Of a stretch of 64,000 nt of DNA, positions 44,673 to 57,546 are shown one piece after another; positions within the stretch are counted from its first letter, which is position 1; each line of letters opens with the position of its first letter. Where the stretch lies: positions 224,001 to 288,000 of the forward strand of contig CAWVVV010000003.1 in the NCBI GenBank assembly GCA_963933835.1, written 5' to 3'. A program made the position numbers and the translations under genes. The notes below the pieces were generated by a model. It did no database searches. It saw nothing but the letters and a program-made list of their open reading frames with translations, and had not been told where the DNA came from. This stretch comes from an uncultured Puniceicoccaceae bacterium (GTDB lineage: Bacteria; Verrucomicrobiota; Verrucomicrobiia; Opitutales; Oceanipulchritudinaceae).

Positions 44673-45024
<352 letters not shown>

Positions 45025-45028
45025 TTTT

Positions 45029-45953
45029 AAGCGGCATACAGGGCCACTAGCCCTCATTCCTGCTCTTATCCAGTCAACTCATTGCTGGATTTGGAAGCGT
45101 AGATGTTCATACCATCGCTACGCCAACCCATCTATCCAACCTCGCTACAATCGGCCCCGCCGAAGACGCGCCCCTCCCAAATTCCTTTCGCGAAAGTGAT
45201 CTCGAAGCCGGTTGGTATTTCGAAGAGAATTTCGGCTACTACTACGCCACCTCTGAAGTCCGTGGAGGCGCCACAACCACCGGCTGGATCTATTCTCCAT
45301 GGACCGATTGGGCCTATATGCTCCCCCGAGCAGCCAATGGCAGTTTCTGGCTCTGGCACCTTGAACTGGGCTGGTGTTTCATGGGCGCCGATGTCGCCGA
45401 CTACATTTGGCTCAGCTCCGCCGGTGAATGGATCTTTTTCATCAACGACGACCCGACCGCCGCCTACTACTACAGCTTTGCCCACAATCGCTGGACCGCC
45501 TTCAGTGAGGTTCCTGCGGTCAACTTGCGAGGCTTCGATCAGTTCGTAACCGATATTTTTAATGAGGGCGTCGAAACGTATCAAATCACCCCGAATGCAG
45601 CAGGCACGGGAGGCACGTTTTCAATCAGCGGAACAGAAACATTAGGTTTAGATACCGCCAGCATCACCTTCTCGGGAACGTTCTATTTCGCCCTCCCGAG
45701 CCCGACCTCAGGCCAAGCCTCCCTCGTATTCGATATCACAAACTACGCTATAGAAGTGAGGCCCTTTAGGGGTCAGAAAATCACCTTCAATGGGACTGCC
45801 CAACAGTTCTACAACAGCTATGGGCAAACACTTCCCGACGAGCTCGAATTCAATTTGATCTTCGACCGTAAATCCAGCGGCAGCTACACCGCCGCCGCCA
45901 AATTCAATAGCACTAACCTCCTATTTGAAGACGGATCCTTCGGCCTTGAATAG
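45029..45953 (+). pseudogene. Secreted Trp-rich-repeat protein lacking a proper start
   Basis: The frame of ORF 45318 is open back to 45051 (…LLLSSQLIAG…AGWYFEENFGYYY…GWIYSPWTDWAY…FWLWHLELGW…). A signal-peptide-like KRHTGPLALI lies upstream in another frame with no ATG. Confidence 0.6.
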
Positions 45954-46049
45954 CCTTCGCCGCTTCTAGGCGAGAAGTAGCTAAATCCATCCCGAGAATT
46001 TTCCCATTCTCGATTCTTGTGCTAGCGTTCCTCTATGAAGCTCTACTAG

Positions 46050-48293
<2,244 letters not shown>

Positions 48294-48324
48294 GCGAGCA
48301 GGTTCATTCCATAGCACATTTCAC

Positions 48325-48357
48325 AGCCTGATGCTCATTTGAGCATCAGGCTTTTTT
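48325..48357 (+). terminator. Rho-independent terminator after katG
   Basis: AGCCTGATGCTCA-TT-TGAGCATCAGGCT followed by a T tract. Confidence 0.88.
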
Positions 48358-49776
48358 CTACTCACTAAGGTCGCGGCGCATATAGCGACCGAAGGCTTTC
48401 ATCACCCAAAGATGAAGGACTGCCTGCGTGGCATTGTAGAACAGCCACGGCAGCCGCGGACGATAGCCGTGAATCGCCGTCAAGAGGACCTTCCCGCCAA
48501 GGACCTGACGGAATTCGAACCGTCCAAGTGCTTCAGCATTCGCATCCGCAAGCAGGCCTCCAACGATGTAGTAGGAATCAAGATGCTCACTGCTCAGCTC
48601 CTCACTGCGGCGTAGAGAAAACAGCGGCGCCTTTAATCCAAACAATCGAATGTCACGATCGTTTCCTGACATATCAACCCGAACAAGACCTTTAAAGAAC
48701 CTGCCCAGCCACTCGAAATAGACCTCCGCACATTCAGCTGTACTTTGGGAGTGAGGCAGGTGAACTCGCTGGACTGATCGCACTCTCCGAGCCTCTCGAA
48801 TCAGCTTATTATCCTGCTTCTGCGTCCGCTCCCTTTGGTTCGGAAGCACTTGCCCGTTGTCATCAATTGAACGCTTAAGGGCGTCTTCAAATCCTTCTGC
48901 ACTGACCGAAACCTTCTCTTGCAAAGGATTAGGACGAAGGTCGAGGTCGTGTTTCAAGCTATCAACCAATGGCCCGGTGAGGGAGCGTGGACTTCCACTG
49001 AACAACTGAATCCAGAGCTTCGAAATCGAAGTCGAACGTATTGGGATGGGAATAAAGAAACGCCTCCGCCCCAGCACTGCGGCGCAACGCTGGATCATTT
49101 CTCCGTAGGTCAAAGGTTCCGGGTAACCAATGTCGTAGCTCCCTTGAGCAAAGCTTGAATCCTTCAGCGTAATCTCAAAAGCCCGAACCACGTCATCAAT
49201 CGAAATAAAGTAAGTGCGTGAATGAAGCCAACGTGGAAGCAACATCACTGGGAGGCGTCTCACGAGGTTGACCAGCATCCGCAAAGACGAACCTCCAGGC
49301 CCCACGATAATTCCCGCACGTAAAACCGTCACCGGGGTAGGATAACTCCGGAGCGTTTGTTCGACTTCATCCCGACTACGGAGATGGCCTGAGCGTTCTC
49401 CACTTGCCTCAGGTTGAAGCCCTCCAAGATAGATCAACCGTTTCACCCCACTGGCTGCGGCTGCGCGGGCGAAATTGTCTGCCAGAAGCAGGTCCAAGTC
49501 CTCAAAATTGCTCTGATTCAGTCGAGAAGATGGCAGCATCGAATGGACCAGATAAATAGCATAATCGGCCCCTTTCAAAGCATCCGTCATTTCTCGCAGT
49601 GAAAAGAGATCACAACGTATCCAACGCTCTGCCTTGTCGTTGGCCGTCGTTGAAGCACGCGTCGTGGAGCGGGTCAGCGCTATCAGGTCGTAATCCGCCC
49701 GAAGGTTTTCACGGAGAGAGGACCCGACAAAGCCTGAGGCACCTGCGAGCACTACGGTTGGGCGTTTATCTATCAT
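48358..49776 (-). CDS. NAD(P)-binding epimerase-like protein (YbjT-like) with C-terminal extension
   Basis: LAGASGFVG, AIYLVHSM, IYLGGL, HLRSRDEVE and LRAGIIVGPGGSS. Confidence 0.8.
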   Translation of the reverse strand: MIDKRPTVVLAGASGFVGSSLRENLRADYDLIALTRSTTRASTTANDKAERWIRCDLFSLREMTDALKGADYAIYLVHSMLPSSRLNQSNFEDLDLLLADNFARAAAASGVKRLIYLGGLQPEASGERSGHLRSRDEVEQTLRSYPTPVTVLRAGIIVGPGGSSLRMLVNLVRRLPVMLLPRWLHSRTYFISIDDVVRAFEITLKDSSFAQGSYDIGYPEPLTYGEMIQRCAAVLGRRRFFIPIPIRSTSISKLWIQLFSGSPRSLTGPLVDSLKHDLDLRPNPLQEKVSVSAEGFEDALKRSIDDNGQVLPNQRERTQKQDNKLIREARRVRSVQRVHLPHSQSTAECAEVYFEWLGRFFKGLVRVDMSGNDRDIRLFGLKAPLFSLRRSEELSSEHLDSYYIVGGLLADANAEALGRFEFRQVLGGKVLLTAIHGYRPRLPWLFYNATQAVLHLWVMKAFGRYMRRDLSE

Positions 49777-49890
49777 AAAAATGCCCCTGAAGAGCGTCTT
49801 AACACTGCATTGATAGTGAATCCCATAAGAGTCTTTAGGCAATCGCCATCATTCGTTTGTCTATTCTACAGAATACCTTGAAGTTGAAAA

Positions 49891-50232
49891 ATGCTTCCTT
49901 TGCTCATCGGGTTCTCTGCGCTGTCATTTTTCGGTTACGGACTGGCATGCATCTGGTCTCCGCATATGCAGATCGAGTTCACCCGCTACGGCCTTGCACG
50001 CTTCCGCGTAATGGTTGGCACACTACAGGTCTTGGGCGCTATTGGCTTACTAGTAGGACACGCTTATCCCCTAGTTACTCTGCTCGCCTCTGCCGGTCTC
50101 GCGCTCCAAATGCTTCTCGGGGTCGGCGTTCGGATTAAAATCAAAGATTCGATCCTCCAGACGACACCCGCGTTCGCTTACTTTCTGCTCAATAGCTACA
50201 TCGCGGTGGAGACCGTTCGGCTTAGCTTCTAA
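49891..50232 (+). CDS. DoxX-family membrane protein
   Basis: EFTRYGL...VGTLQVLGAIGLL...QMLLGVGVRIKIKD. Confidence 0.75.
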   Translation: MLPLLIGFSALSFFGYGLACIWSPHMQIEFTRYGLARFRVMVGTLQVLGAIGLLVGHAYPLVTLLASAGLALQMLLGVGVRIKIKDSILQTTPAFAYFLLNSYIAVETVRLSF

Positions 50233-50591
50233 AGCACAACTAGAGCTAGAGCCATCACAAGCATCAGGGTGGCCGGAAGTGAGCGCTTGGCTGGATCTTT
50301 GATTTTCAAATGCATTCCAATCGCACCAAGCATCAAGATGACGAGCAAACCAGCTGCCGGCTGAACTACCGGTTGATACCAAATCCCTGCAATCAAAGCC
50401 AAAGCGATCGCCAACTTCAAAAAGCCAACGACCCACACCATTAAAGGCGGCAGCCCATAGGCCAAAAACTCATCCCGCATACAGGTCGAATCCCCTCCCC
50501 GATAGGCAGTCGATTTTTTGTAACGGAGCATCCAGACATTCAAGAGACCACCTGCCACGACGACTTGAAGAGCAATTTTTAAGTATTCCAT
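50229..50591 (-). CDS. DoxX-family membrane protein
   Basis: LNVWMLR...YRGG...EFLAYGLP...MLGAIGMHLKIKDP. Confidence 0.8.
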   Translation of the reverse strand: MEYLKIALQVVVAGGLLNVWMLRYKKSTAYRGGDSTCMRDEFLAYGLPPLMVWVVGFLKLAIALALIAGIWYQPVVQPAAGLLVILMLGAIGMHLKIKDPAKRSLPATLMLVMALALVVL

Positions 50592-50756
50592 AAGCTTACT
50601 ATCTCACACTATTCTAGTCACACCAACCAAAGACTGGAAATTTACCCGTCGACCGAGGCGAACAAAAGCCCCCTGCCCAGAAGGATACACTTAAGTGAGT
50701 GTCGGGCCGCTTTTGAAACAGAACTCAGGCAAATCCGGCAGCGCTCAGCGACCGAC

Positions 50757-51158
50757 CTACTTCGCTAGCTCTTCAAGAATCTCGTAGCGCTTAAGAATAT
50801 CCTGCTCTGAACATTCGCAGAGATGCTCGGCCCTTTCGGGGTCTCGACGTTTGAGCATCTGGAAGCGCCCTTCGTTCGCCATAAACTCGGCGAGACTGAT
50901 CTTTGGCCTCTTTGAATCCAAGCGGAGAAGCGGTTGTCCATTTTCCTTCTTACGCGGATCAAACCGGTAGAGGGGATGCACGCCCGCGTCGACGGCCGCC
51001 TTTTGGTGGAAAAGGCCATCATCCAACCCGAAACCATGCGAGACACAATGGGCATAAGCGATAATGAGCGAAGGGCCCTCATAACTGGCGGCCTCGTTAA
51101 AGGCCTGCACGGTCTGCGTATCCTTCGCGCCTAGCGCAACTTGAGCGACATAGATGTG
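50757..51158 (-). pseudogene. C-terminal fragment of pyruvate:ferredoxin (flavodoxin) oxidoreductase (NifJ-type)
   Basis: HIYVAQVALGAKDTQTVQAFNEAASYEGPSLIIAYAHCVSHG...PLYRFDPR...LDSK...EGRF; homology starts abruptly at 51158 next to AT-rich DNA. Confidence 0.85.
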
Positions 51159-51483
51159 CTATTTTGCGCTTTATGACTTTTTTCCATACTGAGCCTATTT
51201 TGAATACCACTCGTTTAAACCAACTGCTTGCTACTATACATCAAACGCTATTGAAGGTATCCAAGCTGCAACCCTTCAAGCAATTTCTAAATATTAGGAG
51301 GTTAGAGTATCAGCAGAACACAAATAGTCTGCTGTGAGCAGGCTTAAACTCGAGTAAGCTGAAGGAAATACTATTCCTGCCGAATTCCTGTCAAAACAGG
51401 TGCATCGAAACGACTATCCCTTGCAACCCACTGCAAAGAATACCGGCATAAACACTATGCAAGCCACTATTTATCAGGGGCCA

Positions 51484-51513
51484 ACGCGGTTTCGACTCCC
51501 GCCACCTCCACCA
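51484..51513 (+). repeat. att repeat: second copy of the tmRNA 3' end
   Basis: 30 bp with one mismatch to 44993-45022. Confidence 0.92.
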
Positions 51514-51559
51514 CCTCAAACCATAAAATGCTGATTATTAGCATCTTATGGATCACATA

Positions 51560-51588
51560 GTGGCGAGTTAAAAACCCGCCACCTTTTT
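51560..51588 (+). terminator. Terminator downstream of the att copy
   Basis: GTGGCGAGTT-AAA-AACCCGCCAC followed by CTTTTT; preceded by a second hairpin at 51521-51551. Confidence 0.55.
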
Positions 51589-51869
51589 CTTGCAGGGGCA
51601 ATTTTTCATTTTGTATTTAACTCTAAATCAAGGACTTAAAGCCTTATTTACACTTAAGGATATCTGATTCAACTCCAAGGGACTAAATCTTGGGCTTAAT
51701 TATGGTGTCCCTATATATGTCCCATTTCGACAACGATTTGAAGGCATTACAATTCGTGCTTTCTGACTAGGAAACTAGGTAATTAAGTCAGATGATGAAT
51801 TTGACTTAACGCGTTCAGAGGATTTATCCGGTAATCCACTACTAATTGATTACCAGAACTGCTTCGCTG

Positions 51870-52004
51870 CGCGGTATTCATGTTTTGGCGATGGACCGGG
51901 AGTTTATCGGAAAAGATTGGTTTCGGTGGCTCAATCGTAAGGCCATCGGCTACATTGCCCAAATCAAAAGCAATACGATCATCAGTAATCAACACGCAAG
52001 ATAA
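51870..52004 (+). pseudogene. IS4-family transposase remnant
   Basis: Manual translation RGIHVLAMDREFIGKDWFRWLNRKAIGYIAQIKSNTII contains the DREF catalytic-Asp motif of IS4-type DDE transposases. Confidence 0.65.
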
Positions 52005-52090
52005 CAAAAAGTATAAAGTGTCTCATCGAATCGGCATGACACCTTTTACAGCACTGCATAGCTTAAATGCTTGACCGAGCACCTCCTCCT

Positions 52091-52111
52091 TATTGAAAGT
52101 GACTTTCATGA
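52091..52111. promoter_or_regulatory. Zur/Fur-box-like 7-1-7 palindrome
   Basis: TATTGAAAGTGACTTTCATGA contains the perfect TGAAAGT-G-ACTTTCA (52094-52108) abutting the leader ATG. Confidence 0.65.
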
Positions 52112-52491
52112 AGAGAGGAAGAAAGACGAAGTATACAAGAACCGCATCACCTGCGCGGCGCTGGGCTTCGGCTTTAATGGTAGTGCTCTTGCTAACCTTG
52201 TCTTTCGCAAGCGTCAGCCCGATCTTACATGATTGGCTTAATGCGGGCAACTCCTGCGAATCGGTTTGCAGCAGCGAATCGCATGGTTCTACGGAGGACC
52301 AAACCGTCCACGTCTGCGCGGTAGAAATTTTTGGAATGGGCGCGGACTGTCCATCTTCGATAGAGATTCCATCCGCAGCTTTGATCGAGGTCGCACAACT
52401 CTCGTCTTATTATAATTCAACTTGGGATGAGAAGAGTGTCCGCTCCCGCTGTGCACGTGCCCCACCGATTGAAAGTGTCGTTACCGCTTAG
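52108..52491 (+). CDS. DUF2946-like secreted leader peptide with Cys/His motifs and C-terminal RAPP arrest motif
   Basis: Basic N-terminus plus hydrophobic signal; LHDWL, CESVC, HVC; ends CARAPPIESVVTA; 79 bp upstream of a TonB-dependent receptor. Confidence 0.75.
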   Translation: MKRGRKTKYTRTASPARRWASALMVVLLLTLSFASVSPILHDWLNAGNSCESVCSSESHGSTEDQTVHVCAVEIFGMGADCPSSIEIPSAALIEVAQLSSYYNSTWDEKSVRSRCARAPPIESVVTA

Positions 52492-52570
52492 TCTCTAAGC
52501 ACTACACTCACCGTACCTATGCTGTGAGTGTTACTTCAACAACAACTTTCAACAACAACTTTCAATAACT

Positions 52571-54661
52571 ATGCACAGCTTTATAAAAAAAAGCGGCCTC
52601 TTTGCCTGCGCCGCTCTTCTCACGAATATCACCCAAGCAGATCAACTTGATTCCGATTATGTTTACGTACTAGACGAATACATTATATCAGCGGGTCCCT
52701 TACCACGTCAGATTGAGGACTATTCCAATCCTTTCACCGCTCTCGATACTGATGCGATTCGCCAAGAGTCCGGCGGCACACTCGGCGAATTACTAGATGG
52801 GCAACCAGGTGTTACTTCAACCAGCTTTGGAGCTGGAGCCAGTCGCCCCATTATCCGTGGTTTCGATGCCGCTCGTGTCCGAATTCTGGAGTCGGGCCTA
52901 GGTTCACTCGATGTTTCTGAGACCAGCCCCGATCATGCAGTTTCCGTTGAGCCACTGCTCACGAAACGTATTGAGATACTGCGTGGTCCTTCCACATTGC
53001 TTTACGGCAGCTCGGCCATCGGCGGCGTGGTCAATGTAGTTGGCCGCGAAATCCCACGTGTTCCGGTCGATCCGAAAGGCTACGAAGGTGCCTTCGAGAC
53101 ACGCTATGACACCGTCTCCGAAGGAGAGACTTACCTCGGCTATGGCACAGTTGGCGGTGAGAATTGGGCCTTTGGAGTATCGGGACTAACTCGGAAAACT
53201 GAAAATTATGAAATCCCTGGAGAAGCCGAAGCTTTCCACGAAGAAGAAGCACATGAGGAAGACGACCACGAGGAGGAAGCATCCGGCGACACACTGGAGA
53301 ACAGTTTCGTCGAAAATGATTTTATCTCAGTGGGCGGCACTTGGTTCTTCGGAGAACAAAGCTACCTCGGCGCATCTTTTTCATCCTATGACGCTTTTTA
53401 CGGAGTGCCGGGACATGGGCACCACGAGGAGGAAGCGCATGATGACCATGAAGAGGAAGATCATCACGAAGAAGAAGAAGGCGTCGCTATCGATCTGGAA
53501 CGAAAGCGTTTCGATCTGGAATTGGCGCTTTTTGAGCCGATCGATTGGATCGAAGCTGTTCGCATCCGTTTCGGCTACACCGACTACGAGCACCTTGAGA
53601 ACGAAGGTGACGAGATGGGTACTGTTTTCCAACGTGACGGCTGGGAGTTTCGAGCCGAAGCCGCACACCATGAATGGACATTTATCGACGAAGGAATCTT
53701 CGGGATCGATATTTCGGACACTCGTTTTGAAGCAATCGGGGAAGAGGGCGCTGCCTTCGGCCCACCAACTGAAACGCGCAATCAGGCATTTTTCATTAGT
53801 GAGCAGATTCACCAAGATAAAATGCACTACGAGTTCGGCGGCCGGCTGGAAGCCCAACAAATCGACGCAGAGGGCGGCTTATCTGATTATAGTGGACTCG
53901 CCCTTAGCTTGGCCGCTGGACTCATCTATGAAATCGATGAAAATAACTCTCTTGCGCTCTCCTTACAACGCTCGCAACGGAACCCAACCTCTTCTGAACT
54001 CTATGCCAACGGTGCCCACTTGGCTACCAGCCAGTTCGAAATTGGCGATGCAGACCTTGAGCTTGAAACTGCATATGGAGTCGATCTAAGCTATCGACAC
54101 AGTAATTCAGTTTGGAATACCCGCCTCTCAGTCTTCTATACTTACTTCGAAGATTATATCTTCGCAGAGGCGACCGGTGCTGAAGAAGACGAACTAGCGG
54201 TCTTTGCATTTACTGCTTTAGATGCATCTTTCTATGGGCTCGAAGCTGAACTGGAATACCTGCTGATCGACAGCAGTGATATCCAATTCAAAATTGGATT
54301 ACTGGGCGATTTCGTGAAAACTGAAAACCACTCAGCGAAAGATGCACTTCCCCGAACACCTCCACTTCGTATCGGAGGAAAGGTCCGTCTGATTCACGGC
54401 AACTGGGACACTGGAGTAATCTTACGTCACGCTTTTGAGCAGAACGACACCGCACCGCTTGAAACAGAAACTGATGGATACACCGAACTCCAAGCGGACC
54501 TGTCATATACCTTCGACTTAAGCAATGACATGGATTTCACGCTATTTGTTCGTGCAGACAATCTATTAGACGAAGAGATCCGCCCGCACACATCCTTCCT
54601 CAAAGATGATGTGCTGCTCTCTGGCCGTAATTTCACGCTAGGCGCTCGGTTGGAGTTCTAA
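52571..54661 (+). CDS. TonB-dependent receptor, ZnuD-like, with His/Glu-rich loops
   Basis: Plug SFGAGASRPIIRG...SPDHAV...IEILRGPSTLLYGS; HEEEAHEEDDH and GHGHHEEEAHDDH tracts; HLAT; HTSFLK...GRNFTLGARLEF. Confidence 0.9.
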   Translation: MHSFIKKSGLFACAALLTNITQADQLDSDYVYVLDEYIISAGPLPRQIEDYSNPFTALDTDAIRQESGGTLGELLDGQPGVTSTSFGAGASRPIIRGFDAARVRILESGLGSLDVSETSPDHAVSVEPLLTKRIEILRGPSTLLYGSSAIGGVVNVVGREIPRVPVDPKGYEGAFETRYDTVSEGETYLGYGTVGGENWAFGVSGLTRKTENYEIPGEAEAFHEEEAHEEDDHEEEASGDTLENSFVENDFISVGGTWFFGEQSYLGASFSSYDAFYGVPGHGHHEEEAHDDHEEEDHHEEEEGVAIDLERKRFDLELALFEPIDWIEAVRIRFGYTDYEHLENEGDEMGTVFQRDGWEFRAEAAHHEWTFIDEGIFGIDISDTRFEAIGEEGAAFGPPTETRNQAFFISEQIHQDKMHYEFGGRLEAQQIDAEGGLSDYSGLALSLAAGLIYEIDENNSLALSLQRSQRNPTSSELYANGAHLATSQFEIGDADLELETAYGVDLSYRHSNSVWNTRLSVFYTYFEDYIFAEATGAEEDELAVFAFTALDASFYGLEAELEYLLIDSSDIQFKIGLLGDFVKTENHSAKDALPRTPPLRIGGKVRLIHGNWDTGVILRHAFEQNDTAPLETETDGYTELQADLSYTFDLSNDMDFTLFVRADNLLDEEIRPHTSFLKDDVLLSGRNFTLGARLEF

Positions 54662-54694
54662 GTAGAGCGAGTCGCAAAAAAAATCTTCTTTAAG

Positions 54695-54730
54695 AGGAGT
54701 TCGCAAGAATGCTTGCGAACTCCTTTTTTT
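54695..54730 (+). terminator. Rho-independent terminator after the receptor
   Basis: AGGAGTTCGCAAG-AATG-CTTGCGAACTCCT followed by a T tract. Confidence 0.85.
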
Positions 54731-54751
54731 CGGGTAAAATGAGCCGCTATA

Positions 54752-55189
54752 ATGCCCCTCAAAAAGACAGAGCTTTTAGAAGTTATCATAGATCGCCTAA
54801 AGTTAAGCGGCGGCCGCATGACGAAAAAGCGCGAGCGCATCCTCGGTGCTTTACTGACCTTTGATCACCCCGCTACTGCTGAAGAAATCCGCGAACGGGC
54901 AGAGTTACCCCCCTCGGACTTGGTGACAGTCTATCGAAATCTCGAAACCTTTGAATCGATCAACTCGCTCCAACGGATTCCGCTCGAAAACGGCACTCAG
55001 ATTTTTGAGCTGACTGCACCTGGAGAGCACTACCACCATCTCATTTGCCGCGAGTGCCACAAAGCCGAACGCTTGGACGTCTGCGTAGGCAAAGAATTGA
55101 TCCACAATGCAAAAGCACGCGGCTACTCACAAATTTCCCATATCATGGAAGTCTACGGCGTCTGCGAAAGCTGCGAAAGCCCAGCCTAA
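54752..55189 (+). CDS. Fur-family transcriptional repressor (probably Zur)
   Basis: RMTKKR, TVYRNL, EHYHHLICRECH and YGVCESC; zinc-uptake context. Confidence 0.88.
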   Translation: MPLKKTELLEVIIDRLKLSGGRMTKKRERILGALLTFDHPATAEEIRERAELPPSDLVTVYRNLETFESINSLQRIPLENGTQIFELTAPGEHYHHLICRECHKAERLDVCVGKELIHNAKARGYSQISHIMEVYGVCESCESPA

Positions 55190-55299
55190 ACGGCAAACCT
55201 TGACCTCGCATAATTCAAAGACTTTTACCCAAGAAGCTTAGACACTCCGATCGCTATACACACTTCTCGCCTCATTACTGAATAAGGGTGGGGTAAAAA

Positions 55300-55788
55300 T
55301 TAGTGTGAACATTGGCTCTTCCGGCAGAGGCGAAAGTTCCTTACATGAGCTCCCGCGAGGAAGAGGCCACCGATAGTATTAATCCAGGCTCCCGCATTTA
55401 ACGGTAGAGGCTCTTCAGAGAGATCACGCGAACAGCTTGAGCAGCTGTGCACACAAGTCGCTTCAACGCCATCATGTGCTGCCGCATATTGACGCTCATG
55501 TATGAGCGCAAAAATCAGAAGACTCAAGCCGACAGCACTCAACGCTGCGACCCACTTATCTTTATGCTTACGGCAGCCCATAAACATGGCGAAACCCGTC
55601 GTTGGCAGCACCAGTAGCAACATCCAAAGGTGGAAATCCTCATGCACGAAAAAGCTCGTGGCTACAATCGGGAGCAGCACCAACAAAACCGGCGTTAATA
55701 AACAATGTACCGCGCAGACTGTTGCCATCCCAATTGCAAGATGATCGAGCCAGCCATGTGTACGACAACTATTTTGAGCGCTATTCAT
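55300..55788 (-). CDS. MerC-domain membrane protein with His/Cys-rich loop
   Basis: WLDHLAI..ATVCAVHCL, EDFH, GCRKH, AHVRNFRLC; extra HDG..CVHSCSSC loop. Confidence 0.82.
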   Translation of the reverse strand: MNSAQNSCRTHGWLDHLAIGMATVCAVHCLLTPVLLVLLPIVATSFFVHEDFHLWMLLLVLPTTGFAMFMGCRKHKDKWVAALSAVGLSLLIFALIHERQYAAAHDGVEATCVHSCSSCSRDLSEEPLPLNAGAWINTIGGLFLAGAHVRNFRLCRKSQCSH

Positions 55789-55818
55789 AGTATTCACAGG
55801 TAAGTCAGCACTGGGCGC

Positions 55819-55839
55819 TAATGCAAGTCTCTTTCGATA
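55819..55839. promoter_or_regulatory. Degenerate second Zur-box-like site upstream of the MerC-domain gene
   Basis: TAATGCAAGTCTCTTTCGATA aligns with the 52091-52111 site. Confidence 0.4.
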
Positions 55840-56254
55840 AAATATTGCGCAATCCCTTCTCTCAAACCCAAGATGATCCTGATCGGAATAGCACTCCCAT
55901 CACTGCCCCCGCACACACACGGGTGCAGCGGTTTTTCCATTGCTTTCAGATGTAACTGCACAGTCTGCGCAGTACCCATCCCTTGGCTTCAACATATCCA
56001 ATCGAGCGCAAATCCAGGAGATACGTAACTTTACAGAGTTGCTTCCGCAGATTCTGTTCATTCAAAAGAAATAGAATCAATTATGGCCTCAATCCCGGCT
56101 TTCATCGCTTCGGGCAGTTTATCTCATTGATTGGATATCTTAGACAGTCTGGGACAGTCCCTGCCAAAGCGTTGTGTCCCTATGTGTGTCCCAACTACTT
56201 GACTAAAGCCACAAGTGTATTGAATTTCAATGCTTTGTGAATTCAAGTTGAAGA

Positions 56255-56282
56255 GTTCGACTCCCGCCACCTCCACCATTTT
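56255..56282 (+). repeat. att repeat: third copy of the tmRNA 3' end
   Basis: GTTCGACTCCCGCCACCTCCACCATTTT is identical to the ssrA end plus its first downstream Ts. Confidence 0.92.
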
Positions 56283-56355
56283 AACAAAGCGATTATCGGC
56301 TCAAACAGGCTTGAAACGATAAGCGGGGCGTTGAGCTACTATGCTCCACAGATCG

Positions 56356-57546
56356 CTAGCTATTGAGGTTATAGAGGGTCGCTCCCTGCGCCAGAGAGGT
56401 CGTGAAGATGTTTGGCTCGTAGTCGAAGGCAGCCATAAACCGCGTCATCATCGCCTTCTCCACCGCATCGGCTGAGTCCTTGCGAACAAGCGCGACACAA
56501 CTACCGCCAAAGCCGCCGCCGGTCATTCGACAGCCGGCAACGCCATCGAGCTCCTGAGCTGTGGCTGCGATGAAATCGAGTTCTTTGCAGCTGACTTGAA
56601 AGTCGGCGCGCAGAGATAGGTGACTACCATTGAGCAAAGTTCCAAAGGTATCGATCGAGCCGCGCTTGAGGGCTTGGACTGCCTTTTGGGTCCGATCGAC
56701 CTCCGTCACAACATGGCGCACGTAGCGGCCAAGCTCTTCATCGATGAGCGCGTGCTCCAGCGCTCCAGCGAGTTTCTCAATAGGCAGATGGCCGAGAAAC
56801 TTAAGTCCGAGGATGTCTGCCGCCTTATCACAGCCCTGACGGCGCTTGGCATACTCGCCATCGACGAGGGCATGCGTCACCCGCGAATCGATGATCATTA
56901 CAGTCCAATCAGGGAAATCAAAAGGCGTTAAGGCCGACGTCTCAAATTCACAGTTCAGCAAAAGCAGGTGATCTCTCTCACAATTTAGAACCGCCGCCTG
57001 ATCCATAATGCCACAAGGGACGCCCGCGAAATCGCGCTCTGCCATCTGGCAAATCTTCGCCAGCGCCATGCGATCCATTGTCTTTCCTGCGAGCTCCAGG
57101 CAAAGTAGCGCGAAAGCCGCCTCAAGGGCAGCACTACTACTCAGGCCCCCACCGATCGGAATCGTCGAGTCCACATAAGCATCGAATCCAGTCGTCTCGA
57201 CGCCAGCCTCAGTCATCCCAGCTAAGACGCCCTTCACATAGCGCTCCCAACCCTCGTCCCCGACAGCAAGATCATCTAGTTTGAATTCAATCGCGTCGGT
57301 AAACCCTTTCGCAGTCAAACGCACGACGCCGTCTGTGCGTGGACTCGCCAAAACCAGTAGATGCTTGTCGATCGCAGCGGGCAGGACATTGCCACCGTTA
57401 TAGTCGACGTGTTCACCGATTAGATTCACGCGACCCGGGGCGATAACAGCGATCTCAGGCTCAACATTCCAACGAAGCTTCATCCGCTCTAGGGCATCAG
57501 CAAAAATCGGCGAAGAGAGTATCAGACTATTCGGTTTTTCAGTCAC
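56356..57546 (-). CDS. galK: Galactokinase
   Basis: APGRVNLIGEHVDYNGG, PIGGGLSSSAA, CGIMDQ and RMTGGGFGG. Start uncertain. Confidence 0.95.
   Translation of the reverse strand: MTEKPNSLILSSPIFADALERMKLRWNVEPEIAVIAPGRVNLIGEHVDYNGGNVLPAAIDKHLLVLASPRTDGVVRLTAKGFTDAIEFKLDDLAVGDEGWERYVKGVLAGMTEAGVETTGFDAYVDSTIPIGGGLSSSAALEAAFALLCLELAGKTMDRMALAKICQMAERDFAGVPCGIMDQAAVLNCERDHLLLLNCEFETSALTPFDFPDWTVMIIDSRVTHALVDGEYAKRRQGCDKAADILGLKFLGHLPIEKLAGALEHALIDEELGRYVRHVVTEVDRTQKAVQALKRGSIDTFGTLLNGSHLSLRADFQVSCKELDFIAATAQELDGVAGCRMTGGGFGGSCVALVRKDSADAVEKAMMTRFMAAFDYEPNIFTTSLAQGATLYNLNS

Follow-up and report, generated by a model that had tools for sequence, protein, structure and literature searches.

In the literature that we covered, metal sensing by an arrest peptide has been shown experimentally only for copper, in CruR and CutF. 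CruR (Bp2923, DUF2946/PF11162) is a leader with CXXC and RAPP motifs that is encoded upstream of BfrG/CrtA in Bordetella pertussis; copper relieves its arrest, and Rho terminates transcription before the TonB transporter (PMC9426467). CutF is encoded upstream of CutO in Rhodobacter capsulatus, where copper promotes stalling, opening a stem over the cutO ribosome-binding site; its His-rich relatives have been proposed to serve nickel and cobalt (bioRxiv 10.1101/2022.11.11.516240 and 10.1101/2025.02.05.636593). Here we describe a leader open reading frame (ORF) and the ZnuD-like TonB-dependent receptor gene that follows it in a 64,000-nucleotide stretch of DNA from an uncultured Puniceicoccaceae bacterium of the order Opitutales (assembly GCA_963933835.1, contig CAWVVV010000003.1, positions 224,001 to 288,000; "the window," whose own numbering is used below). 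Judged from its sequence and predicted folds, the locus is on balance probably an attenuator of translation that senses a metal, most likely zinc, in the manner of CruR and CutF.

Arrest has been demonstrated for CruR, and RAPP's two prolines sit in the ribosomal P and A sites in ApdA, ApdP, and CruR; the context upstream of the motif also matters (PMC12992588). The same report describes "TonB-related" RAPP upstream ORFs (uORFs), which lie upstream of TonB receptors throughout Gram-negative bacteria and nearly all of which have a signal sequence. The words "zinc" and "stem-loop" do not occur in its main text, which records no ligand tested for this class. According to the CruR paper, no riboswitch has been described for zinc or copper (PMC9426467). 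In Caulobacter, a DUF2946 gene heads a Zur-activated efflux operon, for which the available text gives no leader mechanism (PMC4176598). Our literature search found no description of a zinc-sensing arrest leader; supplementary lists of CutF-like and RAPP uORFs, which may include members of the present family, and most subscription papers lay outside that search. An earlier note, made from the letters of the window alone, had named no earlier description of such a switch in this lineage. Its novelty is lower than the note supposed, since RAPP leaders before TonB receptors have been published (PMC12992588), as has stall-driven stem opening for CutF.

A leader ending in RAPP upstream of a ZnuD-like receptor

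The leader ORF (52108-52491, plus strand) encodes 127 amino acids and ends in RAPP-IESVVTA followed by TAG, with the RAPP codons at 52456-52467, 7 codons upstream of the stop. It carries a putative export signal, a hydrophobic helix at about residues 15 to 36, a PxxH motif, an acidic linker, an HxC motif, and RAPP. The ORF length, the signal or transmembrane segment, and the position of RAPP had been given in the earlier note, and all of its coordinates were verified. The receptor gene (52571-54661, plus strand) begins 79 nt downstream on the same strand, and the two genes presumably share one transcript. Its 696-amino-acid product has two His/acidic tracts (residues 223 and 284) and matches ZnuD both by family (NF038289, E 5.6e-135) and among PDB entries, where ZnuD (PDB 4rdr, E 3.8e-57) was its only match at E ≤ 1e-10. 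Those relatives of the receptor that have names belong to Verrucomicrobiota in 12 of 14 loci (Opitutales, Coraliomargaritaceae).

The leader protein had no Pfam match at E ≤ 1 and no NCBIfam match. A search of 1.84 billion representatives returned 35 proteins, and an alignment of the query with 33 relatives (34 sequences) was built after exclusion of a longer call of the same gene, one 175-amino-acid match, and one 1337-amino-acid match. Six residues were invariant (P38, H41, C70, R117, P119, and P120), so that the R and both prolines of the arrest motif were kept in 34/34 sequences; A34 (33/34), H45 (32/34), and H68 (31/34) were nearly so. These column counts make H41 (codon at 52228), H68 (52309), and C70 (52315) the candidate metal ligands, encoded within 52228-52317 with the semiconserved C50 (22/34) and C54 (29/34) between them. 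Of the His and Cys residues proposed earlier as ligands, H41, H68, C70, and, less strictly, C50 and C54 are kept in the family; H59 (4/34) and C81 (3/34) are not, and the CESVC segment (C50/C54), which had been listed among the ligands, is a separate, semiconserved CXXXC. The AlphaFold model of the leader was poor (pLDDT 68, pTM 0.34), and a PDB fold search with it returned no matching fold; for these reasons, we claim no ligand geometry.

The spacing between C70 and the Arg of the arrest motif is 47 residues here, 46 to 48 in 34/34 aligned sequences, and 46 to 49 in 69 of 72 leaders. Across these 72 loci the motif was RAPP in 36, RGPP in 28, RDPP in 4, RSPP in 3, and RLPP in 1, and it lay 1 to 9 codons from the stop in every one. 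These forms are almost only those reported as arresting or partly permissive (PMC12992588).

A profile of the leader matched 71 of 301 genomes of the order Opitutales and 39 of 301 genomes of a phylum sample, only 3 of which were outside the order; the cultured relative Thalassobacterium maritimum has a homologous pair too (L148). Among 79 leader loci examined, 72 lay upstream of a ZnuD-like receptor, 6 lay upstream of another gene, and 1 was cut by a contig end. Of the six other partners, four are TonB receptors of different kinds (one of them nearest to the copper type, the only such case among the 79 loci) and two are unannotated; one of the latter is followed by a ZnuA-family gene, so that this leader (L089) heads an operon with a ZnuA-family gene. 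A single-protein search of genome contigs found no leader relative, a word-index protein search gave only 2 matches, and the 34-sequence alignment was unusable for locus scans because it has no conserved stretch of 7 to 10 columns.

Beyond the phylum, RAPP- or RGPP-ended ORFs were seen upstream of ZnuD-like receptors in a Kordiimonas locus (L158, two in tandem) and a Vicinamibacteraceae locus (L160). The present genome also has a second leader-like ORF on another contig (C2:347720-348109, minus strand; 129 amino acids, export signal, CGYC, end GPPPRLA). It precedes a gene for a Met/His-rich exported protein and is likely a copper-type, CutF-like leader.

A predicted stem between the stall site and the receptor start

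The nine nucleotides just after the Pro-Pro codons (52468-52476) are exactly complementary to 52558-52566, ending 4 nt before the receptor ATG at 52571. In the predicted fold this stem is extended by 52477-52482/52551-52556, giving a 5' arm at 52468-52482 and a 3' arm at 52551-52566, which are joined by two inner hairpins (52486-52500 and 52504-52531, spanning 52486-52531) with pair probabilities mostly of 0.95 to 1.0. The 9-nt complementarity, its extension, and both hairpins had been pointed out in the earlier note, and all are present in the sequence and in the predicted fold. Homologues have inner hairpins too, of unrelated sequence. Two extra helices, with 5' arms within 52428-52455 and most pair probabilities between 0.7 and 0.99, were also predicted: 52448-52455/52572-52579, covering the receptor start codon's U and G together with codons 2 and 3, and 52428-52443/52608-52622. 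The region 52440-52590 folds at -40.3 kcal/mol (z -5.77), and 0 of 200 shuffled sequences were equally stable.

The 3' arm lies in an initiation region (52538-52566) that is C/A rich, free of G, and without a Shine-Dalgarno (SD) sequence, none being found upstream of the receptor start. It contains a 13-nt tandem duplication (52538-52550 equals 52551-52563), the two registers of which are used at 0.89 and 0.11 in the predicted fold. An SD-like 4-mer precedes only 2 of the 72 partner starts, and the genome is SD poor overall (87/684 long ORFs, with crude starts). Scans between leader and receptor found no sigma-70-type promoter and no intrinsic terminator, site counts being at chance level, and an Rfam scan of 50500-56500 found no riboswitch, only a fragment of the transfer-messenger RNA (tmRNA) 3' end. 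Two RNA runs contained 7 to 9% of the words and gave no contig over the leader or the receptor, which is too sparse to be informative; two public runs show one extra A in the A-run after the receptor stop (54675).

Conservation of the stem was examined in 72 leader-partner pairs, the partner start being chosen manually in each. The other 7 of the 79 loci were excluded because they were near duplicates, were frameshifted, lacked an RxPP close to the stop, or had an unclear start. The threshold was set at 6 or more expected pairs joining the 21-nt segment at the RxPP end to the 33-nt segment that terminates at the start codon; 43 of 72 pairs passed it, as did 39 of 62 after removal of close copies. 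As controls we took the first 150 from a set of 193 same-strand gene pairs in this genome, and 8 of these 150 passed the same threshold. Mean duplex energy was -11.5 kcal/mol for cognate arms and -5.9 kcal/mol with permuted partners, and 0 of 10,000 permutations gave a value as low; this alignment-free test was used because MAFFT failed to align the 3' arm over 24 distant loci. Relative to GC-matched partners, the excess was greatest with the 5' region at -3 to +15 from the RxPP end and was gone when this region was shifted 15 nt upstream or 9 nt downstream.

In a MAFFT alignment of 17 close loci, made without fitting to the stem, 72.9% of cells pair, and double-sided changes occur in 7 of 10 pairs. 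The covariation score was reached by 0 of 500 shuffles, with the register chosen from the alignment; the count of changed pairs alone was within the shuffle range (59/500). Covariation among homologues had been asked for as a check on the proposed stem, and compensatory changes were indeed found, locked to the stall position. The covarying stem ends 3 to 7 nt upstream of the start codon in most loci that have it. Fourteen loci found later by way of the receptor had a leader match in 8, and the stem was present in all 8 (one of them duplicates L041). The phylum search added four more loci: one with the stem, one whose stem ends further upstream, and two with no RxPP. By these sequence comparisons, the stem is a real, selected regulatory element. 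In family f38 (L043-L062), a small GCAGG/CCTGC-type hairpin usually follows the closing stem.

A ribosome footprint reaches 16 nt past the P-site codon. With the prolines in the P and A sites as in ApdA, ApdP, and CruR, a ribosome stalled at RAPP would cover about 52447-52477, including much of the 5' arm. In the folding models, opening 52551-52583 costs 12.6 to 13.1 kcal/mol on free RNA, 1.5 to 4.2 kcal/mol with one stalled ribosome, 1.2 to 1.4 kcal/mol with two, and 9.2 to 9.7 kcal/mol with a ribosome at the stop codon. A stall at RAPP that masks the 5' arm and frees the receptor start had been proposed earlier, and the models agree, since the start opens under a stalled ribosome and not under a terminating one. 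The narrower block suggested for this calculation, 52455-52480, did not suffice; it leaves 9.3 kcal/mol because the start-codon helix survives. We also compared opening costs in leaderless orthologues (2.8 to 9.4, n = 6) and leader-bearing loci (3.0 to 15.6, n = 20); the ranges overlap and were computed over unequal regions, and the comparison is not used as support.

It is quite likely that stalling controls opening of the receptor start. We propose a stall in which RAPP's prolines fill the P and A sites, as they do in CruR and ApdA/ApdP; the stalled ribosome would then cover the 5' arms of the helices, leaving the SD-less receptor start single stranded so that receptor is made. C70, 47 residues before the Arg, would lie outside the ribosome, given the length of the exit tunnel, and this spacing is near that of CruR. 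When metal is plentiful, it would bind His41, His68, and Cys70 of the nascent chain; folding or export would pull the chain free, and the ribosome would finish and leave, allowing the stem to close over the start. If opening is controlled in this way, relief of the stall by metal, with the receptor off when metal is replete, is likely as well. Granted both of these steps, zinc is a fairly good bet as the metal. In this genome a Fur-family repressor, probably the product of the neighboring gene, may also bind a palindrome at the leader start.

A Fur-family-type operator and the identity of the signal

The palindrome (52091-52111) has a perfect 7-1-7 core and overlaps the leader start codon. A second copy (55819-55839) lies upstream of a MerC-domain gene: with a matrix built from other genomes, that is, without the leader site, it was the top match genome-wide, and 52091-52111 ranked second. 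Similar boxes lie upstream of MerC-type genes in relatives. In five other genomes, four exact matches precede ZnuD-like receptors, MerC-type genes, or choice-of-anchor M genes, and one-mismatch matches are mixed. Gibbs sampling of upstream DNA found no motif, and a palindromic expectation-maximization (EM) model blended the operator with a -35 hexamer and gave a higher score in a coding control region. The operator pattern was drawn by eye from the Gibbs and EM outputs and then tested on control regions; it occurred in 10 of 69 leader upstream regions and in 0 of 69, 71, 67, and 65 control regions. A second perfect 7-1-7 match in the genome (C7:3040) was set aside; it lies within an unrelated ORF.

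The consensus of the palindrome family resembles the Zur box of Desulfovibrio, and the copy at 52091-52111 is two mismatches from the delta-proteobacterial Fur box and closer to the published Fur box than to the Zur box (PMC545781). A similarly indirect argument has been made for Zur in genomes of the PVC group (PMC10957091). We class the palindrome as a Fur-family-type operator with a probable link to zinc. The left half of the operator (52093-52102) and the 5' arm of the stem (52468-52477) share the same 10-mer, probably by coincidence because the arms differ in homologues. A possible -35-like hexamer of the leader promoter lies at 52071-52076 (plus strand), as TTGAC recurs about 372 to 383 nt upstream of RAPP in many homologues; a consensus promoter scan of this region found no full promoter. 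Upstream of the leader in eight loci (L032, L035, L047, L072, L069, L078, L083, and L093), TTGAC is followed only about 8 to 9 nt on by a TATAAT- or CATAAT-like hexamer, a spacing unlike that of sigma-70 promoters.

Of 119 distinct ZnuD-like receptor loci whose upstream DNA was long enough, in a sampling that favored leader loci, 11 had leader and operator, 65 the leader only, 19 the operator only, and 24 neither, as scored with this profile and this pattern. The operator was thus found at 11 of 76 leader-bearing loci and 19 of 43 leaderless loci (Fisher p 0.0008; chance 0.8% per region). The pattern is not biased toward leaderless loci because it was drawn from leader-bearing ones. The 24 loci with neither include two outside the order with RAPP-ended ORFs that the profile missed, and some with near-miss boxes. 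Four close orthologues share their rmuC-adjacent site with leader-bearing relatives, lack the leader, and carry the operator 45 to 83 nt upstream of the receptor; in a fast tree, leaderless receptors fall at about three distinct places within the group of closest relatives. By these counts, leader and operator look partly interchangeable. This is the strongest evidence for a leader that answers the repressor's signal in the same direction, and the best indirect argument for zinc and for a switch that is off when metal is replete. Zinc, suggested in the earlier note, is the most likely ligand on context only. That note had also placed the leader beneath Zur repression; the palindrome does overlap the leader start here, but only 11 of 76 leader-bearing loci have it, and the candidate regulator belongs to the Fur family and is not identifiable as Zur.

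Several observations weigh against a stall-gated zinc switch. The stem is not universal: 23 of 62 nonredundant loci fall below the threshold, and its frequency, 13/13 in family f34, is 2/8 in f23 and 0/12 in f38, where the arm mostly pairs 22 to 31 nt before the start (ten folds inspected). The permutation and Fisher values given above overstate the case because related genomes are not independent. In this leader, the family's H45 is replaced by Asn. The receptor scores 452 bits against an NF038289 cutoff of 950, with ZnuD still its best family by far, and a weak family member (L084) lies upstream of a copper-type receptor (TIGR01778, E 3e-48). The candidate regulator of the operator, the neighboring Fur-family protein, reaches no NCBIfam subfamily cutoff.

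An alternative is Rho control of the CruR type: a ribosome stalled on the leader would protect a C-rich site for Rho loading or maintain the coupling of translation, its release would lead to termination before the receptor, and the stem would be secondary or would expose untranslated RNA to Rho. This is the published mechanism of CruR (PMC9426467), the f38 stem does not reach the start, C outnumbers G in 52501-52600 (12 versus 4 in 52526-52575), and the genome has two Rho-like genes, both below the TIGR00767 cutoff (470 and 428 versus 509 bits). The C-rich stretch, however, is the paired 3' arm itself and only about 30 nt long, and the end of the covarying stem 3 to 7 nt before the start codon in most stem-bearing loci points to initiation control; we regard Rho control as an unlikely account of the locus, and the two mechanisms can act together. 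(The Rho-like genes lie at C1:47802-49205 and C4:195938-196990 of the 1.94-Mb genome.) We give an equally low chance to the same switch answering another signal, either nickel, cobalt, manganese, copper, or iron or, as in SecM- and Apd-type peptides, the state of export or disulfide formation. His/Cys sites do not specify a metal, His-rich leaders are linked to nickel and cobalt genes in the CutF paper (bioRxiv 10.1101/2022.11.11.516240), the export signal is conserved, and both the two-mismatch distance to a Fur box and the copper-type partner of L084 fit such a signal. On the other side, partners are overwhelmingly ZnuD-like and not sec, yidC, or copper genes, the palindrome family resembles a Zur box, no such box lies near the genome's FeoB-like gene among the matches listed, and CXXC occurs in only 3 of 72 leaders.

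Loss of H45 raises the question of whether, in this genome, a constitutive or decaying stall merely keeps the receptor start open while the operator senses the metal. Among the 34 sequences, only this leader and its closest relative (P0003, matching the L149 leader) lack His45, and both have the operator; f23 combines many operators with few stems and degenerate motifs, and duplication of the 3' arm could allow one of its copies to stay unpaired. Against this, H41, H68, C70, the spacing, RAPP, and the stem are all intact here, L038 and L049 have the operator together with an intact stem (L038 keeping both His residues), and in 65 of 76 leader loci the operator pattern is absent and no control would otherwise be visible; we regard a constitutive or decaying stall as improbable. 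The least probable account by far is a chance structure beside an ordinary small exported protein: A/U-rich arms pair easily and 8 of 150 control pairs pass the threshold, but the z score of -5.77, the position-locked covariation, and the fixed Cys-to-RAPP spacing already contradict it. The reading we retain is that of a stall-controlled receptor start that closes when metal, most likely zinc, is replete.

Genomic setting and comparison with known arrest leaders

Downstream of the receptor lie a gene for a Fur-family regulator (54752-55189, plus strand; PF01475, E 5e-18), the candidate binder of the palindrome, and a convergent gene for a MerC-domain membrane protein (55300-55797, minus strand; PF03203, E 5.6e-26). 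The Fur-family gene occupies the same position in relatives L118, L122, L124, and L125, MerC-domain neighbors occur in L118, L124, L125, L128, L132, and L133, and the order leader, receptor, Fur-family, MerC-type recurs in several f34 genomes. Choice-of-anchor M proteins adjoin ZnuD-like receptors at L011, L022, L029, L119, and L187, mostly in divergent orientation with a shared palindrome, and are candidate zinc-scavenging surface proteins.

The cluster sits in a 4.8-kb islet bordered by direct repeats of the tmRNA 3' end (51491-51513 and 56256-56278, plus strand). The repeats are identical to the last 23 nt (45000-45022) of the intact tmRNA gene (44673-45022), downstream of which the islet lies; 0 such matches are expected by chance. 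Islet GC is 48%, compared with 54% for the genome, and a quick tree groups the receptor within the f34 sequences (support 96) rather than with those of its own family, f1. The metal-uptake cluster was likely acquired horizontally. It forms the second (51514-56278) of a tandem pair of islets at the tmRNA 3' end, both ending in the exact 23-nt repeat; the first (45023-51513) contains what we take to be a catalase-peroxidase-like gene (46086-48293). A short broken reading frame at 51870-52000 resembles a fragment of an IS4-type transposase. The 150 nt before the second tmRNA repeat (51364-51514) are 79% alike to C7:2069-2220 on another contig, perhaps a remnant attachment site.

Membership in the described leader families was assessed feature by feature. 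PF11162 does not find this locus in the genome, 8 of 34 homologues have weak DUF2946 matches (best E 0.0015), and DUF2946 members make up 12% of one Atlas cluster at 0.95; the kinship of the leader family to DUF2946 is remote. HVCAVE stands at the place matching the CXXC copper motif, and HxC occurs in 44 of 72 leaders. The leader shares with DUF2946/CruR proteins the C-terminal RAPP, a fixed spacing of about 45 residues between metal site and RAPP, and the export signal; it does not head a copper-homeostasis operon, its partner being ZnuD-like (the receptor matches TIGR01778 only at E 4e-14). It fits the broad description of CutF-like leaders (fewer than 150 amino acids, PP within the last 15 residues, a signal peptide, and a same-strand gene within 1 kb), with 127 amino acids, 7 residues after PP, and a 79-nt gap. 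It also shows, in silico only and at a site without an SD sequence, the other CutF feature: a stem on the following gene's initiation region that opens under a stalled ribosome. By its sequence, the leader would work like CruR/CutF and yet falls outside the Pfam and CXXC definitions of DUF2946.

On a bolder reading, less probable than not, the locus is a protein-based zinc switch: a nascent His/His/Cys leader would read zinc during its export and gate an SD-free start through a RAPP stall, and across Opitutales it would have been swapped against a repressor operator at the same receptor gene (leader only, operator only, or both), the stall and the transcription factor serving as exchangeable zinc sensors. 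If zinc is the ligand, this would be a posttranscriptional zinc sensor for outer-membrane uptake, and it suggests how initiation can be gated without an SD sequence. The 72 naturally occurring leader-partner pairs bring a stem anchored at the stall site, and leaderless orthologues supply natural controls, so that two questions left open by PMC12992588 become directly testable: whether arrest regulates the next gene and what releases it.

Like CruR, the present leader is a small exported upstream ORF with a Cys-containing site about 45 to 49 residues before a C-terminal RAPP (C90 and C93 of CruR lie 49 and 46 residues before R139; PMC9426467) and a TonB-dependent receptor downstream, and it would have the same polarity, with the stall as the on state. 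Unlike CruR, it has HxC and PxxH in place of CXXC, has no Pfam match, and precedes a ZnuD-like receptor rather than a copper transporter; the covarying stem at the receptor start points to initiation control rather than Rho, and a Fur-family-type operator is present, whereas the cruR promoter is described as having no Fur site (PMC12914433). The receptor itself resembles ZnuD (PDB 4rdr; NF038289) in its His-rich tracts and matching plug and barrel segments, ZnuD being its best family and only close solved relative; its score, however, is under half of the curated cutoff, and its substrate is a prediction. With ApdA/ApdP and the TonB-related RAPP uORFs, the leader shares the motif class and its C-terminal position, but ApdA and ApdP are described as monitors of the Sec/YidC machinery. 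With CutF it shares an exported nascent leader, a stall that would open an mRNA stem over the next initiation site, and a short intergenic region. CutF is reported to have a PPP stall that depends on EF-P and increases with copper, to control a detoxifying oxidase, and to have a stem that hides an SD sequence; the present leader instead has RAPP, an importer as its partner, an apparently opposite polarity, and, in 70 of 72 family loci, a start without an SD-like 4-mer. The locus thus most likely combines the stem-opening mechanism of CutF with the polarity of CruR.

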